A stretch of DNA of 64,000 nt from an uncultured delta proteobacterium. GTDB lineage: Bacteria > Desulfobacterota > Binatia > Binatales > Binataceae. The notes beneath the pieces are model-generated. The model was not told where the DNA came from. It worked only from the letters and a program-made list of their open reading frames with translations, and did not search any database. Below, piece by piece: positions 1 through 23,331 of this stretch. Position 1 is the first letter of the stretch; every line of letters starts with the position of its first letter. The translations under genes were made by a program, and so were the position numbers. Location of the stretch: the NCBI GenBank assembly GCA_963851325.1, contig CAWKOR010000002.1, positions 709,859-773,858 on the forward strand, written 5' to 3'.

Positions 1-503
1 AACAGCTCCCCGGTCGAGCGCCGATCGATCAGATCCAGCACCGTGTTGCCCCACTGATGCCTGCGTTGCACGATGACCGGGCGGGGGGCCGAGGCCGCCG
101 GCATCGTGGTCGCCTCCGGCACTTCGTCGGCGATGGTCAACGGCTCGCTTACCAGGGGGCCATTATTCGCTTTCCAATCGGCGATCCCGCCGCGATAATC
201 GCGAACCATCCGGTAACCGAGTTCAAGGAGACGGCGCACGGCCTCTCCGCCCGCAGTTCAGGTGAAGCTTGCGCAGTAAACCGCGATCTCGGCAGTTCGG
301 TCGGGTAGCAGGCTGGGGGCGAGGGTCTCGACTTCGGTGACCGGAATGTTGATCGCGCGCGGAAGATGCTCTTCGTGAAATAGCGCGCCGAAGCGAGCAT
401 CGACGATGGTTAAGGACGGATCGCGCAGGCGGTTCAGGAGCTCGATGCGCGGAATCTCCTGGACGGTTTGCACGGGACTGGCAGCGGCATTCTCGGAAGC
501 CAT
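1..503 (-). CDS. Rhodanese-domain protein with in-frame UGA (probable selenocysteine, YCASFT-U); continues past the window start
   Basis: ATG at 503. The ORF track stops at TGA 260-258 after ...IAVYCASFT, but the same frame continues TAGGEAVRRLLELGYRMVRDYRGGIADWKANNGPL (canonical rhodanese C-terminal motif) and stays open to base 1. Confidence 0.88.
227..248 (-). promoter_or_regulatory. Candidate bacterial SECIS hairpin of the rhodanese gene
   Basis: mRNA GGAGA-GGC-CGUGC-GCC-G-UCUCC begins 10 nt after the UGA; GCCGU at +16..+20. Confidence 0.65.
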
Positions 504-22736: not shown

Positions 22737-22752
22737 AAAAGGAGTGATGAGT

Positions 22753-23331
22753 ATGCGGATTCGACCTCTGGAGCGAAACGAAGCAAGTTTTTCGGCGCGG
22801 CTGCTTTTTTCCATGGTCAAGCGGCAGGTCGGCAAAGTGCTGACGCCGCTGAAAGTGCAAGCGCATCGGCCCGGCATCATGTGGGGATTCGCGATCGCGG
22901 GAATGGCACTGGAGTTTTCCAAGAGCGCCGACAAAATCGTCAAGCGGCTGGTGACGATACGGACCGCGCAAATCGTCGGCTGCCCCTTCTGAATTGATAT
23001 CAACTCTGCCGTTGGCAGAGCAGACGGAATCAGCCTCGAGAAGATTGCGGAGCTGGAGAATTTCGAGCACAGCGCGCTATTCACCGATGCCGAGAAGGCC
23101 GCGCTCCGAATGGCCGAGGCGATGTGCGAACGCAGCGTGACAGTGCCGGACAAGGTCTTCGAGGAAGTACGCCGCCACTTCGACGAGAAGGCGATCGTTG
23201 AGCTCGCCGCGATGATCGCGCTGGAAAACATGCGCGCGCGTTTCAATCGCGCACTGGAGATTCCGAGCGACGGATTTTGCGAGCTTCCTGCGGACCATCC
23301 GGCGATGCGCGCCGCGTCGGCGGGGCGATGA
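22753..23331 (+). CDS. AhpD/carboxymuconolactone decarboxylase family protein with CxxU (probable selenoprotein)
   Basis: RBS AAGGAG. GCPF-TGA(22990-22992)-IDINSAVGR; ORF-track pieces 22708-22992 and 23110-23331 share a frame, and the linker is open and family-like (FTDAEKAALRMAEAM, IVELAAMIALENMRARFN). Confidence 0.9.
23004..23020 (+). promoter_or_regulatory. Candidate SECIS hairpin of the AhpD-like gene
   Basis: Perfect stem CUCUGCC-GUU-GGCAGAG after an 11-nt spacer from the UGA. Confidence 0.75.

Follow-up and report, generated by a model that had tools for sequence, protein, structure and literature searches.

Two in-frame UGA codons, one in a rhodanese/K+-channel fusion gene and the other in an AhpD-like gene, lie within a single 64,000 nt stretch of Binataceae DNA (hereafter the window), and the sequence comparisons presented here support both as selenocysteine (Sec) codons and the hairpins that follow them as SECIS elements. 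Very probably these are two independent hairpins of the standard bacterial kind, each belonging to its own selenoprotein family, and the pentamer GCCGU that both place at +16 to +20 after the UGA is coincident. A sequence-only reading of the window had taken this pentamer for a lineage-specific SECIS signature with which a larger hidden selenoproteome might be mined. We confirm that the pentamer follows both UGAs (at 242–238 and 23008–23012), and the genome does contain at least 17 Sec genes, but it is homology that finds them, while GCCGU leads back only to the two genes already known.

Two selenoprotein genes in the window

The AhpD/CMD-family gene, encoding a CxxU selenoprotein (GCPF-U), occupies 22747–23331 of the plus strand, with its true stop TGA at 23329–23331 and its likely start at the ATG at 22753, 8 nt past an AGGAG. 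The Sec codon, U82 of the CxxU motif, is the in-frame UGA at 22990–22992, conserved in orthologues and followed, on direct reading, by ATT GAT ATC AAC TCT GCC GTT. The Pfam CMD domain extends over residues 44–125, across U82 (score 41.8, cut-off 23), and the PF02627 match to the gene holds one internal TGA. Of the NCBIfam models, NF053654 (YciW-related (seleno)protein) scores 125.1 bits against a cut-off of 310 and TIGR01926 scores 36.6 against 81.8; judged by these profiles the protein is related to both families and lies outside those equivalogs, the YciW-related (seleno)protein being the nearest. AhpD-like CxxU and rhodanese-like selenoproteins are both among the families listed in the 2026 review PMC13188914, and the AhpD-like, CMD-like and YciW-related CxxU selenoproteins (its table; NF053654, TIGR01926) have the CMD domain and the CxxU redox motif in common with the window gene. 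A TGA is present at the same codon across 60 related genomes, and all of the 33 distinct Sec-type sequences assembled after adding further contigs retain it; 10 more distant homologues have Cys (TGY) opposite the Sec codon, giving CPFC. Two loci of one genome (L045 and L071, genome G026) were excluded from the orthologue and Sec/Cys-form counts, and L044, a misaligned fragment, was dropped from the alignment.

The rhodanese gene encodes, by translation and Pfam, a 413-residue fusion of a rhodanese domain with a K+-channel pore. Its 5′ part fills positions 1–503 of the window on the minus strand (ATG at 503), and the gene extends past the window start to end at G000:C2:709123 (locus L052:664-1902, minus strand). 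The Sec codon, residue 82, is the in-frame UGA at 260–258, followed, again on direct reading, by ACT GCG GGC GGA GAG GCC GTG. Pfam places Rhodanese at residues 21–112, with U82 inside, and Ion_trans_2, with the filter sequence TSVGYGD, at residues 182–256; the PF00581 match likewise holds one internal TGA. The active-site loop reads YCASFT-U (CX4U), in which the Cys occupies the canonical catalytic position and Sec replaces the Arg of canonical CX4R rhodaneses. All seven of the nearest orthologous loci have TGA at the Sec codon, and TGC occurs there in one orthologue; opposite the U, distant CRGPYC-type rhodaneses have Cys and the canonical CX4R rhodaneses Arg (CGN).

No curated selenoprotein model matched this rhodanese/K+-channel fusion with its CX4U loop: of the two seleno-rhodanese models (NF041203 and NF045694), that for TsoB gives 31 (cut-off 805) and that for LYCAU 29.9 (cut-off 115), both far too low. 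PMC13188914 lists five forms of rhodanese-like selenoprotein (UxxS, UxxG, CxU, UxxG and UxxxxU/TsoB), with which the fusion has in common the rhodanese domain and a Sec in the active-site loop, and the U-to-U spacing of TsoB equals the C-to-U spacing of the fusion, four residues. However, CxxxxU is absent from these five forms as given there, and a channel-pore fusion is likewise unlisted. The fusion matches Pfam Rhodanese but, having no listed Sec motif and both curated scores below cut-off, belongs to none of forms 1–5.

Structure and conservation of the SECIS hairpins

With the U of the UGA numbered 1, +19 and +20 after the TGA correspond to G22 and U23. The rhodanese hairpin (227–248, minus strand; −12.0 kcal/mol) consists of an 8 bp stem (13–20/26–34) with one bulge and the loop CGUGC (21–25), set off by a 17 nt spacer, and the AhpD-like hairpin (23004–23020, plus strand; −11.1 kcal/mol) of a 7 bp stem, CUCUGCC/GGCAGAG (15–21/25–31), and the triloop GUU (22–24), with an 18 nt spacer. 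G22 and U23 are loop bases in both folds, and the earlier description of an apical hairpin with its loop G at +19 is thereby borne out. C21 (C+18) is the last stem base of the AhpD-like hairpin and the first loop base of the rhodanese hairpin. In the AhpD-like gene one arm is supplied by UCU-GCC, coding for Ser-Ala, and the other by GGC-AGA, coding for Gly-Arg, with the Val codon as the loop between them. At gathering thresholds, Rfam returned nothing within the window.

The hairpin accompanies the Sec codon in both families, being present in all 33 AhpD-like Sec sequences (in 29 of them with the loop starting at position 22) and in six of the seven rhodanese Sec sequences. Among homologues with Cys, a hairpin occurs in 3 of 10 AhpD-like and 2 of 8 rhodanese forms, at scattered positions, which supports the view that the structure is tied to the Sec form and is mostly absent from Cys homologues. 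Over 32 distinct AhpD-like orthologues, 94.2% of the cells in the stem alignment are paired, against 33–60% for slid partners. Three of the seven stem pairs show compensatory changes, namely U-A to G-C (five sequences), U-A to C-G (three) and C-G to U-A or G-C (four), and the resulting covariation score was reached by none of 500 shuffles. The consensus structure is retained across the seven rhodanese Sec orthologues, in which G18, G19, C20, G22 and U23 are invariant. These SECIS hairpins are inherited with the gene family, to approximately 35% protein identity.

One Cys-type AhpD homologue (L048, genome G050) carries a strong hairpin past its Cys codon (8 bp, loop UGGU from position 23, −16.4 kcal/mol). 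It may be a remnant SECIS left after Sec-to-Cys conversion, as has been described for other families (PMC1794560).

That the in-frame TGAs are instead nonsense mutations in pseudogenes, or stops between adjacent genes, with the hairpins as incidental structure in GC-rich DNA, seems to us extremely improbable. The 61 nt folds around the two TGAs do have unremarkable z-scores (+0.56 and −1.18), a SECIS-like hairpin is expected by chance at about 11% of the open in-frame TGAs of this 60% GC genome (2369/21044), and the rhodanese U lies opposite the canonical Arg (CGN), which is one mutational step from TGA. Yet each TGA lies inside a single Pfam domain and is kept in 33 AhpD-like and seven rhodanese distinct orthologues, down to 35–40% identity, with Cys there in other homologues; further, the AhpD-like stem has undergone the compensatory changes given above, and the genome carries the full Sec machinery.

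Sec machinery and the selenoproteome of the genome

The genome of this soil bacterium comprises 5.29 Mb at 60% GC in two contigs (C1 and C2). It encodes a tRNA-Sec (C1:3318589-3318684), SelB (374 bits) and SelA (580 bits), each above cut-off, and a SelD (387 bits) whose gene has an in-frame TGA of its own. The selD gene (Sec at ORF residue 36) adjoins selB at C1:3681235-3684288 on the minus strand. The genetic code is standard, because TGA is otherwise a normal stop, terminating 1974 of 4311 confidently coding frames.

In at least 17 genes a protein domain continues across an in-frame TGA: three AhpD-like, four rhodanese, three Prx-like, two WAxxUGC ResA-like, SelD, one SelW/Rdx-like, two GrdB/PrdB-like and one ArsC-like. 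Thirteen were collected first, without any hairpin criterion, from paralogues with Cys opposite the TGA and from family searches counting stops inside matches; these are the three AhpD-like and four rhodanese genes, five of the AhpC/TSA type (the three Prx-like, UxxC, and the two ResA-like, which score above the NCBIfam cut-off) and SelD. Three of the rhodanese genes are CX4U and one has U at the catalytic Cys position. A second screen, combining coding potential with a generic hairpin bearing a loop G at 19–29 and confirmed by Pfam/NCBIfam, added the SelW/Rdx-like, the two GrdB/PrdB-like and the ArsC-like genes. For these four, hairpin statistics are circular since a hairpin was required of them; the GCCGU count is not.

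The figure of 17 is a lower bound, given that a candidate had to show 40 open codons upstream of its TGA and 30 downstream to pass the screens, and that 20 extra candidates were put to test. With 1609 candidates, a codon log-odds screen for coding TGAs lacked specificity, and a dicodon six-frame score took its place. The paralogue screen covered 2179 read-through windows, of which 121 had a non-self match across the TGA and 26 were inspected; most of the 121 matches were set aside as noise, with the TGA opposite Arg or other residues. In the hairpin screen, rows 131–304 were examined on condition of a Cys no more than four residues from the TGA. When 20 further candidates were put to Pfam, four were supported, including two GrdB-like genes with an NCBIfam match across the TGA; five proved to be true stops, where the domain ended ahead of the TGA or the two sides carried separate domains; and the remaining 11 had no family match, among them three that the paralogue screen had supplied (C1:2120419, C1:2836444 and C1:614977). 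Among the candidate families, a Sec codon was found in none of eight molybdopterin (formate-dehydrogenase-type) matches and in none of five thioredoxin matches. By title or abstract, no selenoproteome study of this bacterial group is apparent among the literature matches listed.

Several of these loci have features of their own. The two further CX4U rhodanese genes, C1:2774015 and C1:721646 (both plus strand; L102 and L103), score below every NCBIfam seleno-rhodanese cut-off; one encodes 160 residues with what looks by eye like a signal peptide at the N terminus (a hydrophobic stretch and ASAA), the other 240 residues. At C1:3453406-3454648 (minus strand; L104, L003) the rhodanese that places U where the catalytic Cys would be lies beside a GrdB/PrdB-like gene (LVPA-U-P) on the same strand, and together they may be a small operon of selenoprotein genes. 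At G000:C2:24948-27596 (plus strand), a molybdopterin oxidoreductase gene devoid of Sec is followed directly downstream by the AhpD-like Sec paralogue (C2:27261). Finally, two near-identical repeats about 2 kb apart, C1:4044627 and C1:4046753 (both plus strand), each contain an in-frame TGA (ISARVTG|MNS...); their paralogues have Cys or Ala at the TGA, no SECIS there is convincing, and they may belong to a mobile or degenerate element present in repeated copies.

GCCGU is not a lineage-wide signature

The proposal that GCCGU at +16 to +20 (or, more loosely, GC[C/G]GU) is a lineage-specific motif recognized by SelB and usable for mining is, in our judgement, highly improbable. It has in its favour that the pentamer follows the two Sec codons of the window and only one of 1968 confident TGA gene ends, rare enough at true stops to be called specific; the statement that ordinary TGA stops lack it accordingly holds. 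It is nevertheless missing from 15 of the 17 Sec genes of the same genome, and the enrichment of 2/17 over 1/1968 consists entirely of the discovery pair (0/15 outside it). The near-variants at +16 to +20 are GCCGG in the close AhpD paralogue, GCCGC in one rhodanese paralogue, and ACCGU and UCCGU in the two GrdB-like genes. In the rhodanese family itself, GCCGU is found in two of seven orthologues (that of this genome and one of the same genus), and the five from other genera have GCGGU.

Searching with the motif brought nothing new. TGA-N15-GCCGT occurs at 142 sites genome-wide, compared with 114–148 for the other in-phase spacings and 216 expected from base frequencies. Nine of the 142 lie in an apex hairpin, three of these are flanked by open frames in both directions, and apparent coding character is confined to the two known genes. 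The covariance model that had been suggested as a check fared similarly: the AhpD SECIS model finds the window site at 22990 (66.5 bits) and its paralogue C2:27261 (54.5 bits), and among the non-AhpD-type Sec sites searched it matches, up to E = 10, neither the rhodanese site nor any of the 14 others. Further, C21 pairs in the AhpD-like hairpin and lies in the loop of the rhodanese one. G19, C20, G22 and U23 are reported invariant in the orthologues of both families, which speaks for the motif, and this invariance does take the resemblance somewhat beyond a one-off accident. Taken as a recognition signature of the lineage as a whole, GCCGU is not supported.

What the 17 sites do share is the general architecture. 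All fit the bacterial SECIS (bSECIS) consensus, with stems of 6–12 bp, loops of 3–5 nt and spacers of 16–23 nt, and in every one a G takes the first or second place in the loop, with U as the next base at 10 sites and G at 7. Counted from the U of the UGA, the first loop G falls at position 21 three times, at 22 five times, at 24 twice, at 25 and at 26 three times each and at 27 once; SelB of this organism would evidently accept that range, which itself speaks against a fixed pentamer register.

These positions bear on a second alternative, in which SelB favours a convergent short-spacer sub-class at the lowest spacing that works, with the loop GU at 22–23, closing C-G pairs and the apex NCC-GUN-GGN, encoding x-Val-Gly, that the AhpD-like and GrdB/PrdB-like genes would have acquired separately; the rhodanese would join it by its G22-U23 register only, since its residues +6 to +8 are Ala-Val-Arg. 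In agreement, G22 is used at 5 of 17 sites, the AhpD-like (AVG) and both GrdB-like genes (TVG, SVG) have N-CC GUN GG at +16 to +24, CCGU occurs at +17 to +20 in 4 of 17 Sec sites versus 5 of 1968 true stops, and the minority codon GCC, with C21 and G25 paired, is kept in 30 of 32 AhpD-like orthologues. However, the five G22 sites represent three families only, the AhpD pair and the GrdB-like pair each being paralogues (the two sites that CCGU adds to the discovery pair are these mutually paralogous GrdB-like genes), 12 of the 17 sites have a different spacing and hairpins just as good, and the rhodanese Ala-Val, found in six of eight Cys forms, is inherited and hence not selected by the SECIS. 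We consider this sub-class unlikely, and retain two independent standard elements as the preferred explanation.

Origin of the shared pentamer

The pentamer has a different history in each family. In the AhpD-like family it is, on the evidence of its orthologues, a family character: at +16 to +20, 28 of 32 distinct sequences have GCCGU, two GCCGG and two GCGGU, to approximately 35% protein identity. In the AhpD-like protein, only Sec forms have Val+7, Gly+8 and Arg+9, and Val+7 is found in none of the 10 Cys forms. The Cys-type homologues retain IDIN(S/A)A, with Ala+6 in five of ten, and it therefore looks as though Val-Gly-Arg was imposed by the RNA, Ser-Ala being already there. Alanine is encoded in this genome by GCC in 29% of cases and by GCG in 51%, yet 30 of the 32 AhpD-like orthologues use GCC, and the pairing of C21 with G25 accounts for this choice of a minority codon. 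In the rhodanese family, Ala-Val at +6/+7 is present in the same six of eight Cys forms without a hairpin in register 21/22 (two have a weak hairpin with its loop starting at 24), so that there the dipeptide predates the SECIS. The suggestion that the hairpin forces Ala-Val on both proteins consequently survives for Val+7 of the AhpD-like protein, and fails for its Ala+6 and for the rhodanese dipeptide.

How surprising is the agreement between the two sites? In 200,000 random coding pairs, an in-register shared 5-mer arose in 5.9% within 40 nt and in 2.7% within +10 to +30, and 13 of the 136 pairs among the 17 Sec sites share one; a single shared 5-mer is therefore only mildly unusual. Since, in addition, both elements must place GU in a G-C-closed loop at a similar distance, the coincidence is unremarkable.

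We suggest the following mechanism. The hairpin just 3′ of each UGA would be bound by SelB-GTP-Sec-tRNA(Sec), and the UGA of both genes would be read as Sec. The short UGA-to-loop spacer of 17–18 nt would put the G and U contacted by SelB at 22 and 23. GCCGU would then have three sources, namely the functional loop GU, the G-C pair at the top of the stem and an Ala codon at +6, Ala being common at this place in Cys-type relatives too, and the third base of that codon, C, would play a different structural role in each hairpin. Because loop GU, top stem pair and Ala codon suffice to account for the 5-mer, there is no call for a separate recognition signature.

Relation to known SECIS elements

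The bSECIS consensus (the bSECISearch model of Zhang and Gladyshev), as set out in PMC13188914, specifies a loop of 3–9 nt, a stem of 4–16 bp, an MFE of at most −7.5 kcal/mol, a G as first or second loop base, after which G or U usually comes, and 16–37 nt spacing from the UGA. Neither hairpin differs from it structurally, their 17–18 nt spacers falling at the short end of the range, and it covers everything that the two have in common. Both hairpins belong to the consensus by position, loop, stem, spacer and MFE, by the presence of the Sec machinery and by a structure linked to the Sec form. To our knowledge, the particular sequences of the two hairpins are undescribed.

The E. coli fdhF SECIS, as presented in PMC8659212, has a minimal upper hairpin of nt 15–31 in which U17 is bulged and the apical loop holds G23 and U24; SelB is stated to bind at U17 and G23, and most other positions are free to vary. 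Compared with this description, the AhpD-like hairpin likewise spans exactly nt 15–31 with an 11 nt spacer and carries GU in its loop, but GU lies at 22–23 rather than 23–24, a triloop takes the place of the larger loop, and there is no bulged U. In the rhodanese hairpin, by the same comparison, a bulged G on the 3′ arm stands in place of the bulged U.

Implications

Both elements appear to be ordinary instances of a known mechanism; the result for the motif is mainly negative and the by-products are modest. In practical terms, a 5-mer common to two SECIS elements makes a poor search pattern, which here would recover two of at least 17 Sec genes. A more far-reaching possibility, which we regard as unlikely, is that Binataceae-like bacteria have a distinct short-spacer SECIS class (GU at 22–23, NCC-GUN-GGN, x-Val-Gly), taken up on separate occasions by AhpD-like and GrdB/PrdB-like genes and representing a SelB optimum, and, as a separate point, that the rhodanese is an undescribed selenoprotein form carrying a Cys-X4-Sec selenenylsulfide switch on a K+ channel's cytoplasmic domain. 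If such a short-spacer class were real, the apex would impose x-Val-Gly on the protein, reflecting the optimum of this lineage's SelB, and the rhodanese would share the register and not Gly+8.

Finally, considering the selenoproteome that accompanies these two standard SECIS elements, none of the 17 genes is a formate dehydrogenase, and thiol-redox folds (AhpD, Prx, ResA-like, rhodanese, ArsC and SelW) dominate. Reading UGA as an ordinary stop codon would truncate these at least 17 genes at the UGA.
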